From positions 1 through 44,255 of IMG/VR virus record IMGVR_UViG_3300044491_000309: 44,255 bases of DNA. One strand, written 5' to 3'. Both the position numbers and the translations under genes were made by a program. The notes beneath the pieces are model-generated. The model ran no database searches, was not told the DNA's origin, and worked only from the letters and a program-made list of their open reading frames with translations. This stretch comes from a virus. Lineage: Duplodnaviria; Caudoviricetes. The first letter of the stretch is position 1. Every line of letters begins with the position of its first letter. This document shows, piece after piece, positions 2,841-18,100 of the stretch.

Positions 2841-5204
2841 ATGAGTAAATTAATTTGTGCAGCAGATCCCTGCAAGACAAGACTAAGTAGTGCATGTGTC
2901 TTCTATAAAGGCCCTAACTTAGTATGCGCTAAAGTCAATACCAACCAAACCTTAGAACAAGCATTACAAAACATCAATGATGCATTATGTTCTGGTAAAG
3001 GAATTGATGGAACCAGTGGGACCTCTGGCACCTCAGGAACTTCAGGCTCTGCTGGTACATCAGGTACATCAGGGACAACTGGAACTTCTGGAACGTCTGG
3101 TTCTAGTGGTACATCTGGTACAAGTGGAACAGCAGGTACTACAGGAACTTCAGGTACTACAGGAACAAGTGGGTCTTCTGGAACAAGTGGTACATCTGGA
3201 AGCAGTGGATCTTCAGGAACATCTGGTGTTGATGGTAACTTTGGTGGTGCATGTTTTGATTACACATTCTCAACTAGTACATCTACCAGTCCAGGAACAG
3301 GCATAGTAAGACTAAATAACACAACACAGAATACAGCCACACTTTCTTATATTAATGAGACAGACGATAACTCAAACTCTATTCAGTCTTTCTTACAGAC
3401 AATAGATAGTGTAACTTCTGCAGTGAAAGGATTCATGAGAATATCTAATAAAACAGATGCTTCTCAGTTCCTCCTCTTTGCAATTAGTGATCTCACTGAT
3501 AATGGAACTTGGTGGACATTAAATATAATCAACTCAGCATCTTCAGCAACATCACCATTTAGTGATAACGAAGATGTAATTGTATGTTTTGTAACTACAG
3601 GTGACAAAGGTGATCCAGGTACTTCAGGAAGTTCTGGAACTTCAGGTACTTCTGGAATTGATGGTAGTGGAACAGTTATTGGAATAGGCACAACAAATGT
3701 TTTACCTATATGGACTGATGGTCCAAACGGTGAATTAGGTGATTCTCAAGTAACACAAACCAAAATAGACGGTGGTACTGTATTTGATTTAAACGCAATT
3801 ACAACTGGGACTTATACACCTGCTATTAATACTAAACTTTTAGATTTAAACTCTGGAGGTACTCAAAAGTTTTCTATAACACAAGATGGCGGTGGTGGTG
3901 TTGTGTTACCTTCTGGCGATATATTAAACAGCGGCCCATCATTTAATATGGGTGGTAATGCATATTCAAACGGAGAAAATGCTTTGTCAGTTGGAGCTGC
4001 AACCACAGCTTTTGGAAATGGATCATTCGCTGCTAACTTTATAACATTAGCATCAGGAGGAGGATCTTCTGCCTTTGGTTTATTAACTGAAGCAGGTGGG
4101 TTAGCCTCTGCTTCGTTTGGAAATAAAACTAAAGCAACTGGTCCTTATAGTATAGCATCAGGCCAAGATTCAATTGCATCAGGTCAATCATCGGTAGCTA
4201 TTGGTGAAAAAGGCGATGCACAGGGTCCAAACACTTTTGTTTCTGGGTTTGGTGGTACAGCTATTGGAAACAATGCGGTTAAGTTTGGATATGAAGGATC
4301 TGCTGACGGAAACAACTCAGCTAAGTTTGGTTTTGAATCAGTAGCTGGTGGACCAAACTCTTTCGCAATAGGAGATGGCACAACAGCAAATGGCTTTCAA
4401 TCTGTAGCTACTGGCGATAGCAATATTGTTTCAGGTAATAATAGTTTTATAGGTGGTAAAAACAGCACTGTAACAGGATCAGAGTCTATTGCTTATGGGA
4501 TTAGCAACACCATATCAGCAAACTTTTGTGCTATTTTTGGCACTGGCAATACTATACCATCAGGTGGTTTTCTGTCTTTTATAGCTGGAGATGAAAATAA
4601 CGCTGGAATACTTGGAAAGCAAAAGTTAATAGGCACAGGTTTAATAGGTACAGGGCAAAATGGTGTGTTTTTAGGAACATATAACGACAACGCAGACTTT
4701 TTTAATAGATTTCAAATAGGCAACGGAATAGATAATGGTAGTAGATCAAACTCTTTAAGTATAAACAGCGCTGGTAATATTAAAATACCTACATACGGTT
4801 CAGGCACAGTAACTGGAACAGCAACCTACAATTTATCCGTTGATGCAAATGGTCAAATAATAGAAACAGAGAATCCATACAAGCCAGACTATTTAAGTTT
4901 TGTTTGCTTGCTTAGTCAATCAGGAACTGCAAACCCGCAGCCTGATTTAGTTTTAGAAAACTCGTTAGGGATTTTAGGACCATATACTGCTTTTACAAGG
5001 GTGTCGGCAGGGGTATATAACTTAAATGCAACTGGTAAATTTAAATCATTAAAAACAATAATGTTAGCAGCTTCTGGAGCTGGTCCAGGTGGTACAAGTG
5101 GCAACGTTGGTTTTCAATTTGTTGACGCAGATAATTTACGCATAACAACTTCTGGATCAGATAATTTTACTAAAATAGGAATAGAAATAAGAACTTATAA
5201 TTAA
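2841..5204 (+). CDS. Tail fibre/adhesin with Gly-Thr-Ser collagen-like repeats and YadA-head-like beta-roll repeats
   Basis: 24 consecutive G-X-Y triplets (mostly GTS), plus ~14-residue repeats such as ASGQDSIASGQSSVAIG and AQGPNTFVSG that are typical of Hep/Hag beta-rolls. Confidence 0.75.
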   Translation: MSKLICAADPCKTRLSSACVFYKGPNLVCAKVNTNQTLEQALQNINDALCSGKGIDGTSGTSGTSGTSGSAGTSGTSGTTGTSGTSGSSGTSGTSGTAGTTGTSGTTGTSGSSGTSGTSGSSGSSGTSGVDGNFGGACFDYTFSTSTSTSPGTGIVRLNNTTQNTATLSYINETDDNSNSIQSFLQTIDSVTSAVKGFMRISNKTDASQFLLFAISDLTDNGTWWTLNIINSASSATSPFSDNEDVIVCFVTTGDKGDPGTSGSSGTSGTSGIDGSGTVIGIGTTNVLPIWTDGPNGELGDSQVTQTKIDGGTVFDLNAITTGTYTPAINTKLLDLNSGGTQKFSITQDGGGGVVLPSGDILNSGPSFNMGGNAYSNGENALSVGAATTAFGNGSFAANFITLASGGGSSAFGLLTEAGGLASASFGNKTKATGPYSIASGQDSIASGQSSVAIGEKGDAQGPNTFVSGFGGTAIGNNAVKFGYEGSADGNNSAKFGFESVAGGPNSFAIGDGTTANGFQSVATGDSNIVSGNNSFIGGKNSTVTGSESIAYGISNTISANFCAIFGTGNTIPSGGFLSFIAGDENNAGILGKQKLIGTGLIGTGQNGVFLGTYNDNADFFNRFQIGNGIDNGSRSNSLSINSAGNIKIPTYGSGTVTGTATYNLSVDANGQIIETENPYKPDYLSFVCLLSQSGTANPQPDLVLENSLGILGPYTAFTRVSAGVYNLNATGKFKSLKTIMLAASGAGPGGTSGNVGFQFVDADNLRITTSGSDNFTKIGIEIRTYN
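3009..3227 (+). repeat. Degenerate 9-bp tandem repeat encoding (G-T/S-S/T/A)x24
   Basis: Units such as ggaacttct, ggtacatca and ggaacaagt with synonymous variation; a second shorter block lies near 3600-3665. Confidence 0.9.
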
Positions 5205-5543: not shown

Positions 5544-8528
5544 CTAACTCATTTGTAATACTGTAGATACTACATCAATCACTTTACTAGCTGGTATACC
5601 TCTATGACATTCAAAATGTCTAGGGGTATTTTTATGTTCAGGACACCAGTCCCAATCTCCCTTATCAAACTTATGGTTTGGATTGTTCCAACATCCATGA
5701 CATAAAGACTCATCAGTCACTCTATAGCAACTGAATTCATGATCAGCTTCTGTGAAGTTGGATATCATTACAACAGGCACACCAATAGCCCAAGCTAACC
5801 AACTAAGCCCACTAGACAGTCCTATAAAGAACTCGCTCTGTCTTATACAGTCAATAGTGTATTCTAAACTGGTATCAACTATCTTCTCACAATTGTCAAA
5901 AGGATTGTCTTCTATAGATGTATTAATTACCATGTAACCTTCACCATGTAGATAGTTTATAACCTCTTGCCACCCCTCTCTAGTCCAGAACTTACAACCA
6001 GCTGTAGAGTTGGTAGCTATAGTTACATACTTACCTGGAACATTATAGTTATCTTTCATACCACACTCATTGCCCCAATCACTTTTAATTCTAGGTACTA
6101 TCTCTTCATATGGTAATCCTAAGATGTTTGTAGCAGCTTTCTGTAGAGGTATTGTGTTAGGTAGTACAGGCTCTTTGTCACTGTTATAGAACCATCCTAT
6201 TTTATACATTGCATAGATATTATTCACTTCTGTTCCAGGCTTTACAAACTCAAGCTCAGGATATACATCTTCAAACAAGAAGTTCTTAAATGTACTTACA
6301 ATCACTTGACATCCGTGCTTCTTCTTAAACTCTAACACATAAGGTATCCAGGCTATTGTATCTCCTAGTGATGCGCTATCAAATGCTATGTATACACGTT
6401 TGTTATATAGACTTAATGTTTCATCATATACCACTTCACCATTGCTTTCTCTTTTTATAATAGTTTTCCATTCAGTATAATATTCTCTATTAAGTCTTAC
6501 CCAATTATTAGCTCCTATGGTGCTATTATACACCAATTTTGCACCATCATACATATATACATTAAATCTATCTTTAGAACTACCTTTAATTTCTAAATAT
6601 GGTTGACCTACAAAGTGTTGTATAATATGATAGTCTTTACTTGTTTCATTTTGTATAACATCCATGTCTAACACTTTGTTATACAACTCTTTATGACGCT
6701 TACCAAATACATGCATAGTGTTATTAGATGGTACATCATAACGTGGCGCAGCTGTGAGAAGTTTGTTCAGCTGATTCTTCATCTTCATAGGATGTAAATC
6801 TTCTATGTATGCTGTAAACATATCTTTATACTGTGGAAGATTACGTGCTAGTATAGGTAGGCCATATGATATAGCCTCTCTTAATACTAATGGATTACAT
6901 TCCCATGTAGAATTAAACATGAATACATCTGCAGCTAACAAGAACTTATCTGTATCACTACGCTCACCCCATACAGTTACATTAGGTGGTAAGTCTTTCA
7001 TCAATGGTTCCCAGTAGTCTTTAAAATTAACTGCTTGGTTACCTACAAAGTGAAACTCTACATTTGGAAACTTCTTAGCTAATGCTACACCTTCTCCCTG
7101 ATTCTTACCTTTAGTCCATAGTCCTATGTTTACAACATGTTTCTTGCTTAGGTCTAGTTCTAAATCATATTTAGCATTTAATTTGCTCTGCCAATCATGT
7201 ACTACAGGCTCTATAGGAAACTCTAGAACTTCTCTGAGAGACGGCATGTTTTTAAATGTCTCTAAATGATAAGGTGTACAGAATGCGTATGCGTCTGGGT
7301 GATACCTCTTATCTCTATCAGGTCTGAAGGAGATGTTATGACAAGTTTCTATTATCTTCCATGACCTGTCTTTATTATATAATAGAGGTAGCACATTATC
7401 TGCACCATCTCCTAAACACTCAGCCATCTCATCTATATGTACAATATCTATATTATTGTCTTTGATGATGTCTATGAGCTTTGTCTTATCTTCTCCTAGT
7501 GTATAGAAGTTGGATACAAGTTTCTTAATCTGATTCTTCTGAACAACATATTCATCACTATAGTTGGCCCATTCTACAACATAGATGTTAAACCCACTAA
7601 GTGCTTTGATTCTTTTGAGAAGGAACTCAGGCATACCACCTGTAGATAGATGAGGTGCTAAGAATAATACTTTTTTACTCATCTGATATAAAACACTTTG
7701 CATCACTGTTACATCTTTCTCACCATGTAATGCTAACAGTTCTTCTTTATTTGCAGGAAGAGTTACCCACTCTGAAAGAGGATTTGTATATCCAGTGAAT
7801 GGTAGATTTTCTAGATTTAACTCTCCTTTATAGTTCATATATATTAGGGGTAAGCCTTCATGTATATTATACTTCCACAATAGTACGTTTGCTATTGTTT
7901 CTTCGTGATACGGTGCATATAACCTGTGATTAGTTATAACTTTTGGGTGGTTACACATCCATGACCACTCACTTATAAAATCTTTTGATTGTTGCCCTGC
8001 TACAAAGTATCCTGTTTGTCTGTACTTGTTTCTAACTGATTGATCTACGTTAAATAGATCACATGCTGGATATTCTAAACTAAGATGAAGTTCATCTCTA
8101 GTTTCTACACCACCTCGCCCATTTATAAACAAGTAGTCATATATACCTTCTACAAAATATGGATGTGTACAACCATCAGGATAGTAATCAAATATCTTAG
8201 TTATATTCTTAGTCACCACTGTATCAGAGTCTATATATGCTACAGTCTCTGCATAATTTTCTAAAGCGTCTAGTATAATAGCTGGCCTTTGGATAAGAAG
8301 TTTATATATATTGGGATCATTCCTATCAATATAATCCTTCTTTGAAGGGTTTACACCATTTAGTGTCCAAGGTATTGTTCTAGATGCTCCGTGTACAGAC
8401 TTGTCACAATTCATCATATAAACAATAACAGGAATATCAGTGACACTGTTTATACTTTTTACTGCCATTGATATGACATCATAGTATGCTTCATTTGCAT
8501 AAAGTACAAAGGCTTTATCTGCTTTCAT
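5544..8528 (-). CDS. Tri-domain glycosyltransferase: GT-A (DxD) + GT4-like GT-B + TibC/Aah-type O-heptosyltransferase domain
   Basis: N-terminal YIDSD; middle PHLSTGGMP...ECNPLVLREA; C-terminal SLGDTIAW...FIGLSSGLSWLAWA...CHGCWN..FDKGDWDWCPEH...FEC (four-Cys iron-finger pattern). Confidence 0.8.
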   Translation of the reverse strand: MKADKAFVLYANEAYYDVISMAVKSINSVTDIPVIVYMMNCDKSVHGASRTIPWTLNGVNPSKKDYIDRNDPNIYKLLIQRPAIILDALENYAETVAYIDSDTVVTKNITKIFDYYPDGCTHPYFVEGIYDYLFINGRGGVETRDELHLSLEYPACDLFNVDQSVRNKYRQTGYFVAGQQSKDFISEWSWMCNHPKVITNHRLYAPYHEETIANVLLWKYNIHEGLPLIYMNYKGELNLENLPFTGYTNPLSEWVTLPANKEELLALHGEKDVTVMQSVLYQMSKKVLFLAPHLSTGGMPEFLLKRIKALSGFNIYVVEWANYSDEYVVQKNQIKKLVSNFYTLGEDKTKLIDIIKDNNIDIVHIDEMAECLGDGADNVLPLLYNKDRSWKIIETCHNISFRPDRDKRYHPDAYAFCTPYHLETFKNMPSLREVLEFPIEPVVHDWQSKLNAKYDLELDLSKKHVVNIGLWTKGKNQGEGVALAKKFPNVEFHFVGNQAVNFKDYWEPLMKDLPPNVTVWGERSDTDKFLLAADVFMFNSTWECNPLVLREAISYGLPILARNLPQYKDMFTAYIEDLHPMKMKNQLNKLLTAAPRYDVPSNNTMHVFGKRHKELYNKVLDMDVIQNETSKDYHIIQHFVGQPYLEIKGSSKDRFNVYMYDGAKLVYNSTIGANNWVRLNREYYTEWKTIIKRESNGEVVYDETLSLYNKRVYIAFDSASLGDTIAWIPYVLEFKKKHGCQVIVSTFKNFLFEDVYPELEFVKPGTEVNNIYAMYKIGWFYNSDKEPVLPNTIPLQKAATNILGLPYEEIVPRIKSDWGNECGMKDNYNVPGKYVTIATNSTAGCKFWTREGWQEVINYLHGEGYMVINTSIEDNPFDNCEKIVDTSLEYTIDCIRQSEFFIGLSSGLSWLAWAIGVPVVMISNFTEADHEFSCYRVTDESLCHGCWNNPNHKFDKGDWDWCPEHKNTPRHFECHRGIPASKVIDVVSTVLQMS

Positions 8529-11979: not shown

Positions 11980-12624
11980 ATGGCAACTTTTATAAAAGCA
12001 GGCTTTTGGCAGAAACTTTGTGACCCTTGTGAGGGCTATAAGAACTGGTTGAACTTAGACAAGTTTGTTAGCAATATTGTTAACAGTATTCTGAGAAGCA
12101 CACCTAATGGCTTATATTCTCAAACTGCAGATGGAACAGAAATTGTAAATACTGATGTAGAATCAGATTTAATTGGACCAGGTGTAGGCTCTTTAAGTGT
12201 TCCTGCAAATGGATTTAGAGTGGGCGATAGCTTTGTTGCTAGAATGGGTGGTGTAATCTCTACATCTGGAGGTAGTGACTTTATTACAATAAGAATTGAG
12301 TCATTGAATGGTGTAACAGTTGAATTAGCAAACAGTGGATCACAGTCTCTTCCAGGACTAAGTGATGAATCATTTACACTAGAGCTTAACTTTACAATTA
12401 GAAGCATTGGAGAAGCAGGCACTGCAGAAATACTAACTGTTGGAATCATGGCATTTCAAAAGTCTTCTTCAGGAAGTATGGAAGGGTTTGAATTTAGATC
12501 GCTTAACAATACGACCTTTGATACAACCAAAAGTGCAACATTAGACATCACTGCTCAGTGGGCTTCTGCAAATCCTGGAAGCAGTATTAAAAGTCAATAC
12601 TTTACATTACATAAACTTTATTAA
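11980..12624 (+). CDS. Putative virion structural/decoration protein (beta-rich)
   Basis: Gly/Ser/Thr-rich beta-sandwich-like sequence with a short N-terminal CxxC segment. Confidence 0.45.
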   Translation: MATFIKAGFWQKLCDPCEGYKNWLNLDKFVSNIVNSILRSTPNGLYSQTADGTEIVNTDVESDLIGPGVGSLSVPANGFRVGDSFVARMGGVISTSGGSDFITIRIESLNGVTVELANSGSQSLPGLSDESFTLELNFTIRSIGEAGTAEILTVGIMAFQKSSSGSMEGFEFRSLNNTTFDTTKSATLDITAQWASANPGSSIKSQYFTLHKLY

Positions 12625-12635
12625 AACATAACACG

Positions 12636-12773
12636 ATGGGAATACCAAATAAACAAATCGGATGGGGAGCAACAGAAAACTTGTTGTGGAACATCTCTAA
12701 GCAATTAGAGCGATTGATTCAAGTGACTGGTGCACAAAACACCACTACTACCACCACAACAGCTGCTCCGTAA
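12636..12773 (+). CDS. 45-aa peptide with poly-Thr C-terminal tail; not in the ORF track
   Basis: Reads MGIPNKQIGWGATENLLWNISKQLERLIQVTGAQNTTTTTTTAAP*. Confidence 0.7.
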   Translation: MGIPNKQIGWGATENLLWNISKQLERLIQVTGAQNTTTTTTTAAP

Positions 12774-12800
12774 GTATAATTAAGAAACCAACAACTACAT

Positions 12801-13820
12801 ATGAAAGACTTAAGATTTATCTGTGCACAGCCAGATGATACTTACTACACATGGCAAGTACATCTATGGTTGGAAAGTTTAAAAGAGATAGGTGAAATAG
12901 ATAAAGCAATTGTTTTAATCTTCACACCTGCTAGTAGAGAGTTTAATGATAAGTGGCAGAAGATAGTAGATCTATATCCTGAAGCTGAATTTAACTTCTA
13001 CAAAGATGAAGAGAATGATGTTAGTAAGTTACTAGGAATATATATACCTGTACTACGTCCATGGTTACTCTGGAAGTATTTTAAAGAACATCCAGAAATG
13101 TCTGAGAAAGCTATATTCTATTGTGACTCTGACATACTATTTACAGATAAGTTCGATATAAAGAAGTTCTTAGAAGATGATGTAAATTATCTATCTGACA
13201 CAAATAGCTACATAAACGCTAAATACTTCGATAGTAAAGTGAATCAAGTGCTACCTGAAAAGCTTGAAGAATACAAGAACAGAGATATCCTTTCTGAGAT
13301 TGCAAGTGTAATAGGTATAGACAGAGAGATTGCTGAGGCAAACAACGAACACTCTGGTGGAGCACAATACTTACTAAAGAACATAGATTATAACTTCTGG
13401 AGTAAGGTGATGAATGATTGTATACTCATCAGAACCTATCTGCAGAAGATAAACAGAGAGTTCTTTAAAAGTGAAGCGGAAGGTTTTCAATCATGGTGTG
13501 CAGACATGTGGGCTGTGCTTTGGAATCTTTGGCTTAGAGACCAAGAAACAAAAGTGGTTCCTGAGCTTGAATTTGCATGGGGCCCAGACCCTATATCTAA
13601 ATTAGATCGATGCTCAATATATCACAATGCTGGTATTGTAGCAGCAGAACAAGGAGGAATGCCTTGTTTCTATAAAGGAAAATATCACTCTGGTGCAGAT
13701 CCTATGAAGGATCCTCACTTAGACGTTGTGCTAAACAACGAAAAGAGTAAACAACATTGCACATGGTATTATGCTAGTGCGGTAAATAACATAAAACAAA
13801 AGTATAACCTAAACTATTAA
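12801..13820 (+). CDS. GT-A glycosyltransferase resembling peptidyl-serine galactosyltransferase / hydroxyproline arabinosyltransferase (GT96/GT95-like)
   Basis: YYTWQ..LW..S, RPWLL..Y, FYCDSDILF (DxD) and SWCADMWA parallel the recalled Y..WQ, NKP, DxD and GW..EMY motifs of SERGT1/HPAT. Confidence 0.65.
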   Translation: MKDLRFICAQPDDTYYTWQVHLWLESLKEIGEIDKAIVLIFTPASREFNDKWQKIVDLYPEAEFNFYKDEENDVSKLLGIYIPVLRPWLLWKYFKEHPEMSEKAIFYCDSDILFTDKFDIKKFLEDDVNYLSDTNSYINAKYFDSKVNQVLPEKLEEYKNRDILSEIASVIGIDREIAEANNEHSGGAQYLLKNIDYNFWSKVMNDCILIRTYLQKINREFFKSEAEGFQSWCADMWAVLWNLWLRDQETKVVPELEFAWGPDPISKLDRCSIYHNAGIVAAEQGGMPCFYKGKYHSGADPMKDPHLDVVLNNEKSKQHCTWYYASAVNNIKQKYNLNY

Positions 13821-13838
13821 CATTTAAAACTTATTAAA

Positions 13839-14042
13839 ATGGGAAGCAATAGACGTGATTTAAAAGCTTATGTAAGATTCGATGGATCTGGCAGAGTAGT
13901 TCCAGGTAGCTTAGTACTTAGACGTAAAATGCCTAAGGTTGGTAAATGGCAAGAGATTGTTGGCTATGAGTGCTGCAATCCTACCACTACCACAACTACT
14001 ACAGCAACCCCAACCACAACTAGCACAACTACAGTTGTATAA
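13839..14042 (+). CDS. 67-aa protein with CC motif and Thr-rich mucin-like tail
   Basis: Ends ECCNPTTTTTTTATPTTTSTTTVV. Confidence 0.75.
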   Translation: MGSNRRDLKAYVRFDGSGRVVPGSLVLRRKMPKVGKWQEIVGYECCNPTTTTTTTATPTTTSTTTVV

Positions 14043-14053
14043 AACTATAAACA

Positions 14054-14470
14054 ATGGCAATGAAATCTTTATTTCCTGAAGATATGATGGCAGGATCAGC
14101 ATCTGAATCCCTTACAGTGGACACAATAGCTGGTAAGCTAACATATTTTCATGAACAATTACATTTGTTGCATTGGCAAACAACTTCTTACGCAGAACAT
14201 CAAGCACTAGGAGGACTGTACGATTTTGTACATGACTTCAAAGATGGTGTAGTTGAAAAGATTATGGGATACACTGGAAAGCGTCCTGGAGTTTTTAAAA
14301 TTCCAGCGCTTTCTAATTGTACACCAGAATCATGCGTAGCTGATTTAATGTCATTTGCAACACAATTGAAACGTTATGGAGACATAAATGGTTTCCATGA
14401 CATAGGTAACCTTGCAGACACACTATCTGGTGAAGCTGCTAAAACAAAATACCTATTAACTCTATCATAA
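14054..14470 (+). CDS. Ferritin/Dps-like four-helix protein (DUF5856-like)
   Basis: HLLHWQT.SYAEH.ALG.LYD...D..VE ferroxidase-like motif and terminal KYLLTL. Confidence 0.7.
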   Translation: MAMKSLFPEDMMAGSASESLTVDTIAGKLTYFHEQLHLLHWQTTSYAEHQALGGLYDFVHDFKDGVVEKIMGYTGKRPGVFKIPALSNCTPESCVADLMSFATQLKRYGDINGFHDIGNLADTLSGEAAKTKYLLTLS

Positions 14471-15086: not shown

Positions 15087-15266
15087 ATGGCTACAAAAAA
15101 GAAAATGATTAAGCGTAAGGATGGGTCCTACAGTCAAAGAGGATTGTGGGACAACATTCGTGCTAATAAAGGGTCTGGTAGAAAACCCACTAAAGCTATG
15201 TTGAAGCAAGAGAAAAAGATCAAAGCAAAAACAAAAAAGAAGAGGGCTACTAAAAAGAAAAAGTAA
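15087..15266 (+). CDS. Lys-rich basic protein (59 aa); not in the ORF track
   Basis: Reads MATKKKMIKRKDGSYSQRGLWDNIRANKGSGRKPTKAMLKQEKKIKAKTKKKRATKKKK*. Confidence 0.75.
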   Translation: MATKKKMIKRKDGSYSQRGLWDNIRANKGSGRKPTKAMLKQEKKIKAKTKKKRATKKKK

Positions 15267-15269
15267 CCC

Positions 15270-15569
15270 ATGGCTAAGAGAAAAGAAAAAGCTATCAGAA
15301 AGACCACTAAGGGTAAGAGTGCTAATTATAGACCTACCAAGAAAGGTGCTGGTATGACTAAAAAAGGTGTAAAAGCCTATAGAAAAGCTAATCCTGGAAG
15401 TAAGCTAAAAACTGCTGTAACAGGAAAGGTGAAGAAGGGATCTAAAGCTGCTAAAAGACGTAAGTCTTATTGCGCTAGAAGTTTGGGACAGTTAAAACGT
15501 AGCTCTGCTAAGACTAGAAATAATCCTAATTCTAGAATCAGACAGGCTAGAAGAAGATGGAAATGTTAA
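15270..15569 (+). CDS. Basic phage protein (DUF6321-like)
   Basis: RRKSYCARS.G and NPNSRIRQARRRWKC motifs. Confidence 0.65.
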   Translation: MAKRKEKAIRKTTKGKSANYRPTKKGAGMTKKGVKAYRKANPGSKLKTAVTGKVKKGSKAAKRRKSYCARSLGQLKRSSAKTRNNPNSRIRQARRRWKC

Positions 15570-15587
15570 CACTCAAACTATACAATT

Positions 15588-15848
15588 ATGATGCGTAAAA
15601 AAGCAGGATATGGCAAAACTATGAAGAAAGCCAAATCAGGAACAAAAGTAAAGAAAGCTGGTTATGGCAAATCTATGAAAGCCAAAGCTGGTAAATCACT
15701 AAAGAAACCTAAACCTAGCCAAGTAGGACTTAAGAAATTACCTACAGCTGTCCGTAACAAAATGGGATATGCTAAGAAAGGTAAAACAGTAGCTAAGAAA
15801 GCTAAGTCTGGTGGACGTATGAAGAAATGTAAATACGGATGTAAATAA
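15588..15848 (+). CDS. Histone-H1-like Lys-rich protein
   Basis: Repeated KKAGYGK.MK and KKAKSG units; no acidic residues. Confidence 0.65.
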   Translation: MMRKKAGYGKTMKKAKSGTKVKKAGYGKSMKAKAGKSLKKPKPSQVGLKKLPTAVRNKMGYAKKGKTVAKKAKSGGRMKKCKYGCK

Positions 15849-15851
15849 TAT

Positions 15852-15877
15852 AAGCCCCTTAATTGGGGCTTTTTTTT
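15852..15877 (+). terminator. Intrinsic terminator at the convergence of the two arms
   Basis: aagcccc-ttaatt-ggggctt followed by a T run. Confidence 0.85.
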
Positions 15878-16509
15878 ATTCTAGTTCCCCAAGTAGATAT
15901 AGCGTTAGCGTGATCTAAATAGTACTGCCACTCTTCAGGTATATCTTCTACGTTTAAATACCAAGGTGCATGTTTTATTGTGTAAGGTCTATCTAATCTT
16001 ATTGCATCATAAGAGAAGGGTGAATGACCTTTATATAATGCAAATGTAGTATCTATAGCAGCATCCCACCCATAAGGTGTTTTCTTTTCCCAATACCTAC
16101 TCTCTATTGCGTGTGCTTCTCTACCAAGCTCAGTGTTAGGTAAGTCTTCTATCTCAAGAGAGAATCCCACCTTGAATGCTCCTGAACGCATTAGAGCATT
16201 AAGCATGACATCTAACCAGTCATCAGGAACTTTATCGTATATACAGTCACTATCTGCTACAATAAAATAATTCTTTCTAAAGTTTTCGTATTTTGGATTC
16301 CAACATGAATAAGGTCCTTCATTATTGCAATAGATAATATCTTCTGGTATAGTTTTGTACCATTCTAATAAAGGAGGATATGTAGATCCTTGATCAAGTA
16401 TGTGTATCTTGACTCTTTCTTCTCTACGTAAAAATTCTACAGCGTTTTTAGTTGTCTCTAGAAGATTTCTATTAACTAGAAGTAAATGTATTTGGCTAGT
16501 TGTGTACAA
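15859..16509 (-). CDS. GT2-like glycosyltransferase (start codon uncertain, TTG)
   Basis: ILDQGSTYPPLLEWY, ADSD, and IDTTFALY motifs. Confidence 0.7.
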   Translation of the reverse strand: MYTTSQIHLLLVNRNLLETTKNAVEFLRREERVKIHILDQGSTYPPLLEWYKTIPEDIIYCNNEGPYSCWNPKYENFRKNYFIVADSDCIYDKVPDDWLDVMLNALMRSGAFKVGFSLEIEDLPNTELGREAHAIESRYWEKKTPYGWDAAIDTTFALYKGHSPFSYDAIRLDRPYTIKHAPWYLNVEDIPEEWQYYLDHANAISTWGTRIKKSPN

Positions 16510-17062
16510 ATAAAACTTTGTTTATTTTAAACATTTCTTCTTCTGTAAACTTCTTTTTAAACTGTTCTACAAACCAACCATCAGCATCATATTTTACTCC
16601 AAGATATATTTGCTGAGCTAAGTCTCTTCTAGTAGCAAAAGCTCCCATGTCTATTTGATTAGTAGATGGAGTACATTTAAAGTACGTATAATCATAGTGA
16701 GAATGTACCATATCCCAATAAATAAATCCAGGAGAGTTAGCTGCTGCTATTCGTAATTCAGCAACAAAGTTTGGTGTGTAATAGTTGTCATCTCCAGTCA
16801 TTACTATATATTGAGCATCTGACATTTGTTTACCATGCTCTCTTAATGTATGTCCCCAATCATTATACCGCTTATCCATAAAGGTGCAATATATTCTAGA
16901 ATCATTAAAACTTTTTACTATATCAGATATTCTTTTACTTTCTGTATCATCTACAATTACATGAGCACTCCAATTAGTATCTGTTTGAGCTGTAAGAGAA
17001 GCTAACATACAAATTAAAGGTTCATGCCTATTATATGTAGGAATAATAAACTCAACTAACAT
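16496..17062 (-). CDS. GT2 glycosyltransferase
   Basis: FIIPTYNR, IVDD, GDDNYY, ADG motifs. Confidence 0.85.
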   Translation of the reverse strand: MLVEFIIPTYNRHEPLICMLASLTAQTDTNWSAHVIVDDTESKRISDIVKSFNDSRIYCTFMDKRYNDWGHTLREHGKQMSDAQYIVMTGDDNYYTPNFVAELRIAAANSPGFIYWDMVHSHYDYTYFKCTPSTNQIDMGAFATRRDLAQQIYLGVKYDADGWFVEQFKKKFTEEEMFKINKVLFVHN

Positions 17063-17804
17063 TAACAAAATCTCTTAACATTTTAGCATAGTCTTTTTTC
17101 CATGCAGGTTTTAAATGTACATCACCTGTAGGTATCTTTCCTTCTTTTCTAAGCTGTTCTATATGTGCTGAGTGTCTTTGTATAATATTAGGTCTGGTTT
17201 CATCATCTGTACCCTGACCTGATTGGTGATATCCTCTACCACCCCACATATAAAACCAAGAAGCTTCATTATCTGGCATCTTTACATTCACTACACCACC
17301 AAGAGCATGAATTCTATTTGTAAGTGTCATATCCCCACCAGCATTCTCTAGTGGGCTTCTGCCTATTCTTTCCCACACATCTTTACTATACACTATTCCT
17401 GAGTTACCTATACCATTTATAGCAGTGATAGATGGTTCATTATAGAACACACCTGTTTCCCAGTGTATGATGTTAGTGTCTGGCTGCCAATGCTTAGCTA
17501 TGTTCTGAAGATGATTAGACATAGCTACATCATCATCGTCCCAAACAGCAATAAGCTCCCCTTTACATCGCTCAATAGCATAGTTCTCCTTCTCTCCTAT
17601 TAAAGGAAAGGTACTATCTAGATTGTAAATAGTCACCTGAGGATGATCAAAGATCAACTTTTGCTCAGGGTAATCATTCACTATAACTAATTCACACTTA
17701 TCTTTAGGATAGTCCTGTATGAGAAAGCTATACAATGCTTCTTCTAGTGTATCAACTCGTCCATACGTTATACACTTGCACGATATAAAGGGAAGATTGC
17801 TCAT
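17052..17804 (-). CDS. GT2 glycosyltransferase
   Basis: CITYGR..LEEA..SFL.QDYP, IVND, WDDDD, GGD motifs. Confidence 0.85.
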   Translation of the reverse strand: MSNLPFISCKCITYGRVDTLEEALYSFLIQDYPKDKCELVIVNDYPEQKLIFDHPQVTIYNLDSTFPLIGEKENYAIERCKGELIAVWDDDDVAMSNHLQNIAKHWQPDTNIIHWETGVFYNEPSITAINGIGNSGIVYSKDVWERIGRSPLENAGGDMTLTNRIHALGGVVNVKMPDNEASWFYMWGGRGYHQSGQGTDDETRPNIIQRHSAHIEQLRKEGKIPTGDVHLKPAWKKDYAKMLRDFVNVS

Positions 17805-18100
17805 TACCAAACGTGCATTACGTCAAAGGGAGACACAAGTAAAACGTCCTTATCTTCTGATAAAGGAATTACCATAGCATCTTTTAACTTACCTGGATCT
17901 ACAAGTATAACGTCTCCCACTTTGATGTTTGTTACTAAGTCTCCTACATCAAATACAGTGAGCTTAGACATTCTCTTTAACATCTCACGCTGAAGAGCTT
18001 CTTTAGTGTTCTCATCAACGATCAATTTACTTTCTTCCTTCTTTGGAATCTCTACATAGATGCGGTTTCCAAGAAGTTTTTTGTATGGTTTTTTAGCCAT
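17804..18100 (-). CDS. groES: GroES-like co-chaperonin
   Basis: KLLGNRIYVE, VGD.V..IKVGDVILV and terminal LLV...DV patterns of Cpn10. Confidence 0.65.
   Translation of the reverse strand: MAKKPYKKLLGNRIYVEIPKKEESKLIVDENTKEALQREMLKRMSKLTVFDVGDLVTNIKVGDVILVDPGKLKDAMVIPLSEDKDVLLVSPFDVMHVW

Follow-up and report, generated by a model that had tools for sequence, protein, structure and literature searches.

A predicted phage glycosyltransferase and poly-threonine-tailed proteins as a candidate system for virion O-glycosylation

The window analysed in this study is the complete 44,255-nucleotide stretch of the viral record IMGVR_UViG_3300044491_000309 (Caudoviricetes), in which the gene for a 339-aa enzyme, a predicted glycosyltransferase, lies between two genes for mini-proteins that carry runs of threonine (Thr). 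The open reading frames (ORFs) and Thr tracts of this cassette, together with one context gene, are arranged as follows.

11980..12624, + strand: 214-aa protein with a third conserved head (head C) and no Thr tract; context gene
12636..12773, + strand: 45-aa mini-protein of the head A family (conserved LLWxISKQLE head; family conserved across related loci) with a Thr tract; likely acceptor
12741..12761, + strand: run of seven Thr codons in the 45-aa ORF; likely a tag for glycosylation
12801..13820, + strand: 339-aa soluble protein with a predicted GT-A glycosyltransferase fold, PHROG 4417 (D109-x-D111, GGAQ, QxWxADMW, H275)
13839..14042, + strand: 67-aa mini-protein of the head B family (small predicted three-strand head ending ECC) with a double Thr tract; likely acceptor
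13983..14033, + strand: Thr tract of the 67-aa ORF (T7-ATP-TTTSTTT)

The three co-oriented ORFs with Thr-rich ends that an earlier note on this DNA had described were recovered, with spacings of 27 nt (45-aa to 339-aa ORF) and 18 nt (339-aa to 67-aa ORF), and all of the motifs it had named were found in the 339-aa protein: YYTWQ, RPW (86-88), DSD (109-111) and WCADMW (232-237). The 45-aa ORF ends in NTTTTTTTAAP and the 67-aa ORF in CCNPTTTTTTTATPTTTSTTTVV. Runs of seven Thr (T7) occur just twice in the six frames of the window, once in each mini-ORF, and in 0 of 200 triplet shuffles of it. The Thr codons are mixed (ACC ACT ACT ACC ACC ACA ACA), as are those of the Thr runs across 146 loci (ACA 1249, ACT 1090, ACC 544, ACG 197); the tracts are therefore not a simple DNA microsatellite.

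The predicted GT-A fold of the 339-aa protein begins at residue 4 and covers the whole chain. D109 and D111, which follow a strand at residues 104-107, are invariant in 104/104 and 14/14 alignment rows, and the DxD motif and H275, residues of catalytic type, are invariant in the family. Based on the fold and on the DxD after a beta strand, the protein is predicted to belong to the GT-A superfamily. The nearest folds are GT8-type glycogenin (3u2t), LgtC (1g9r) and Gat1 (6mw8), with 8-11% identity in structural alignments and a root-mean-square deviation of 3.7, a kinship of fold only; the Pfam GT8 model matched 0 of 104 family members at E 0.05.

The proposal in the earlier note that the enzyme is of the plant GT95/GT96 type is weakly supported. 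The Pfam HPAT model (PF23452, cut-off 23.9 bits) did not match the window protein, and in 3 of 104 relatives it gave weak matches under the cut-off (13.6-15.4 bits, E 0.012-0.045), in register over the RP...DxD segment; HPAT is also found in 10% of the members of one Atlas cluster at 0.97. No HPAT chain was among the structural matches, the libraries compared holding no predicted cellular structures, and no plant enzyme was named among the 26 matches listed in a search of longer proteins. The likeness to plant GT95 (HPAT1-3) and GT96 (SGT1/SERGT1) would lie in the likely priming of hydroxy-amino acids in unstructured peptides. In contrast to those enzymes, the 339-aa protein is soluble, with no hydrophobic N-terminal segment found by eye, whereas GT95 enzymes are described in passages of PMC8012813 as having a Golgi type II membrane anchor; its acceptor would be Thr runs rather than hydroxyproline (GT95) or extensin serine (GT96).

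Beyond the window, tblastn matched the enzyme in 77 phage records, nearly all with Gram-positive hosts, plus Chryseobacterium phage MA9V-3. In the 13 phage regions read, the enzyme gene is located within or beside structural genes, and poly-Thr tracts were seen in 11 of these regions; phiFL1A and 1706 have them on their major head and tail proteins, for instance, and phiCTP1 on its tail tube. In the remaining two regions, SAC12B and LP65, the gene upstream of the enzyme contains Thr-rich repeats. Among 53 enzyme loci from genome assemblies of bacteria and archaea, 50 had same-strand tracts, nearly all C-terminal, and the tailed ORFs of these loci formed 22 BLAST clusters, some of which are probably distant homologs of one another.

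For a presence/absence control, loci were searched for by structural genes minus their tails and then checked for the enzyme nearby. Scored as enzyme and tail/enzyme only/tail only/neither, the counts were 16/0/0/57 for the Bacillaceae tail tube, 69/0/0/5 for the Enterococcus capsid, 32/1/0/1 for the Lacticaseibacillus capsid, 6/2/0/28 for the Lactococcus tube, 5/0/0/7 for the Clostridium tube and 0/0/0/2 for Latilactobacillus. Pooled, they come to 128/3/0/100 across 231 of 255 loci; the other 24 were left out as truncated, two of them being tailed with the contig end at the stop codon. The anchor tail was present in none of the 100 enzyme-less loci, and among the three enzyme-only exceptions one has a tail in a shifted frame and two have one tract elsewhere. 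A capsid gene not adjacent to the enzyme, examined in the Bacillaceae set, gave 15/1/0/44 of 60; since this gene gains its tail with the enzyme, simple hitch-hiking of adjacent DNA is no explanation. In other phages the enzyme is thus gained or lost along with the tracts of structural proteins, and this joint appearance and disappearance on head and tail proteins of unrelated phages indicates that the enzyme likely sugar-coats the particles. The enzyme-plus-Thr-substrate cassette suggested in the earlier note is strongly supported by the fold and by these structural-gene-anchored tests, and the system is wider than it had claimed, with tags on major capsid and tail-tube proteins elsewhere. We give a probability of 0.75 to the reading that the family of the 339-aa enzyme O-glycosylates Thr on virion proteins.

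Several points weigh against this reading. The control anchors were picked from enzyme-bearing loci, and the Enterococcus set is near-clonal. On a single quick tree there were 10 label changes, of which only two independent contrasts fell on well-supported branches, and a sign test on two supported contrasts (p 0.5) is unable to reach significance. Two Lactococcus loci have the enzyme and no tube tail, the tail is weak at enzyme-bearing locus L111, and locus L230 carries a Thr tail on its head-tail connector without the enzyme. In the window's own family, 79 of 80 relatives are tailed and the records are mostly fragments, so that no with/without contrast is available, and in G002, a complete relative of 113.5 kb whose enzyme shares 72% identity with that of the window, the major capsid protein lacks a Thr tract. 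Finally, neither head A nor head B has a match among cultured phages, and none among solved folds was found for head B; the virion location of the mini-proteins is therefore an inference. We consider it somewhat more probable than not that both mini-proteins of the window sit on the particle themselves.

Further features of the tailed genes were observed. Beyond the capsid stop codon of bIL285 the reading frame continues into a poly-Thr peptide, and in VPE25 and 9183 such a peptide overlaps the capsid end in another frame (these peptides are at L083 4947..4985, L087 7725..7883 and L093 6770..6892); the sequences suggest readthrough or frameshift tagging of only some capsid subunits. The capsid and tail-tube tails of one phage often share their last residues (for example HHD, SHV, SHA, SA or GA; L082, L084, L086, L100-L136), hinting at tag copying between genes or a common terminal signal. 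One enzyme homolog (L145) comes from a 5-kb contig that was assigned to a Woesearchaeota bin and may instead be viral; its Thr-tract ORFs lie on the strand opposite to the enzyme.

The 44-kb window, a fragment at 39% completeness, encodes PolB, RecA, ribonucleotide reductase, rIIA/rIIB, an amidase and several glycosyltransferases, and its DNA is present in estuary, marine and sediment runs. The phage is likely crAss-like: the crAss-type structural block lies outside the window fragment and was seen in G002, with matches to Crass_capsid (E 4e-31), crAss_MUZ (E 2e-33), Ring_1, Ring_2 and, for the portal, 7qog (E 4e-30). Eleven ORFs of G002 have Thr tracts, including the muzzle, a collagen fibre and a 379-aa protein encoded three genes after the capsid gene, which is tailed in 79 of 80 relatives. 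The usual hosts of crAss-like phages are Bacteroidota; the sole cultured capsid match was recorded from a cyanobacterium. Leptolyngbya phage Lbo-JY46 (L440, PP438436.1) has a crAss-type capsid and the structural gene order of G002, with no tracts in the 36 kb read.

Both mini-ORFs represent conserved protein families. Among 80 close viral loci related to the window, head A was found in 70 (with a Thr tract in 63) and head B in 75 (69), and 79 contained a Thr-tract ORF. The immediate neighbours of the enzyme both had tracts in 39 loci, one did in 29 and neither in 12. In relatives, heads A and B often run on into LamG, BspA LRR, Fib_succ_major, Lcl_C, collagen or adhesin repeats; such domains were recognised in 9 of 20 scanned long forms, plus one weak beta-roll match. 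Head C occurs as 37 ORFs in the 80 loci, none of them (0/37) with a Thr tract and often with collagen next, and the C-terminal domain of the window head-C protein recurs on a head-A protein in a relative. The heads look like anchors with swappable exterior tips, of which the window carries minimal forms. A homing-endonuclease-like ORF, identified by reading, is located between the enzyme and head-B genes in L021-L023, L025 and L074.

It is also conceivable, though rather unlikely, that the enzyme glycosylates Thr tracts while the window mini-proteins are eroded remnants of longer fibre genes, decoy or priming substrates, or intracellular actors instead of virion parts. The long domains carried by the same heads in many relatives, the unmatched heads, and the distance between the G002 cassette locus and the main structural block would fit this explanation; against it, the short forms are frequent and show conservation with synonymous changes, the domains that the heads swap are of exterior type, and in 108 of 232 head A/B ORFs no Thr run exceeds 7, the longest having exactly this length. 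It is improbable that the enzyme adds a sugar-phosphate or other nucleotide-activated group to the Thr tags, or extends a sugar laid down by the host. Less probable still is modification of phage DNA or the host surface, with the Thr tails as unmodified flexible linkers hitch-hiking along. Adjacent genes can move as one block, and VPE25, which has the enzyme, has DNA reported to behave as glycosylated in a passage of PMC4999554. However, the enzyme gene sits inside head-tail modules, non-adjacent capsid genes acquire the tail with it, enzyme-less loci have no anchor tail, and the tails are C-terminal and join nothing.

Other genes noted in the window are the following.

2841..5204, + strand: fibre with Gly-Thr-Ser collagen-like repeats and YadA head repeats, close to the 994-aa gene
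5544..8528, - strand: 994-aa fusion protein with DxD, GT4-type and TibC/Aah-type protein O-heptosyltransferase domains, the last with four late cysteines
14054..14470, + strand: DUF5856/Dps-like protein, PHROG 858, directly after the cassette
15087..15848, + strand: three small, very Lys/Arg-rich proteins, possibly DNA-condensing, ending at a terminator-like hairpin (15852..15871)
15859..17810, - strand: three consecutive GT2-like genes, possible chain extenders

The 994-aa fusion and the YadA-repeat fibre likely form a second enzyme-substrate pair. That the Thr tags are served by the TibC-like domain or by the three GT2 enzymes is the least probable explanation: the 994-aa protein exceeds the NCBIfam Aah/TibC O-heptosyltransferase cut-off (263.9 bits versus 200), matches TibC 4rap at E 3e-50 and was found in 3 of 3 relatives read, but it adjoins another likely substrate, and no TibC-like match appeared in the flanks of 53 genome loci, 13 annotated regions and 80 Bacillaceae loci, many of them tailed.

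If the enzyme does O-glycosylate virion proteins, it would likely attach the first sugar to the Thr runs, acting in the cytoplasm of the infected cell, where it would use a host nucleotide-sugar and a divalent metal, and probably retaining the anomeric configuration, as for the nearest folds (GT8). It would recognise an exposed stretch of some seven Thr, whatever the protein. In phages of Gram-positive bacteria one enzyme would tag the capsid, tail tube and head-tail connector, while in the crAss-like group the tags would be on decoration, fibre and muzzle proteins. The flanking mini-proteins are likely small virion decorations with the Thr runs as their only cargo, and other phage glycosyltransferases of the window may extend the chains. 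The likely outcome is a mucin-like bristle coat, for which stability, anti-adhesion and shielding are candidate purposes. More tentatively, and with slightly less than even odds, we propose that a portable glyco-tag of about seven Thr, fitted to any particle protein in phages of several bacterial phyla, is primed by a single soluble enzyme whose unnamed family is distantly related to GT95/GT96, and that crAss-like phages add anchor-plus-tag micro-proteins that solely display glycan bristles as a mucin-like coat.

Such a system would add a new family of enzymes and a portable tag to what is known of virion glycosylation by phages. Glycosylated virions are known from mycobacteriophages (Che8, Corndog, Myrna, Rita; Freeman et al. 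2023, as cited in passages of PMC11256854 and PMC12363180), where, according to those passages, phage-encoded glycosyltransferases likewise act on capsid and tail-tube proteins. Unlike that system, the present one would combine one small enzyme with a dedicated poly-Thr tag in Bacillota phages, a Chryseobacterium phage and crAss-like phages; no mycobacteriophage record was among the 77 and 79 records matched in this comparison, made by tblastn only. No description of a poly-Thr tag system was found in the literature searched, and the passages seen of PMC6821194, PMC4999554 (which reports glycosylation of VPE25 DNA) and PMC11328733 do not describe the tags. The Aah/TibC autotransporter heptosyltransferases are similar in glycosylating proteins on oxygen in the cytoplasm and in having the enzyme gene beside the substrate gene, and a member of this type lies 4 kb away in the window, unrelated to the 339-aa family. 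Aah/TibC are GT9-type enzymes that act on beta-helix repeats. No TibC-like enzyme was found within the flanks searched of 146 prophage and cultured-phage loci.

If this interpretation is correct, virion glycosylation would be common in dairy, gut, soil and aquatic phages rather than a mycobacteriophage oddity, and culturable phages, such as those of dairy origin, would be included and directly testable. There would be a new glycosyltransferase family, the poly-Thr ends of well-studied capsid and tail proteins would be explained, and one enzyme with a short tag would provide a way to O-glycosylate proteins in the bacterial cytoplasm. These findings would also have a bearing on how phage particles encounter mucus, antibodies and grazers.
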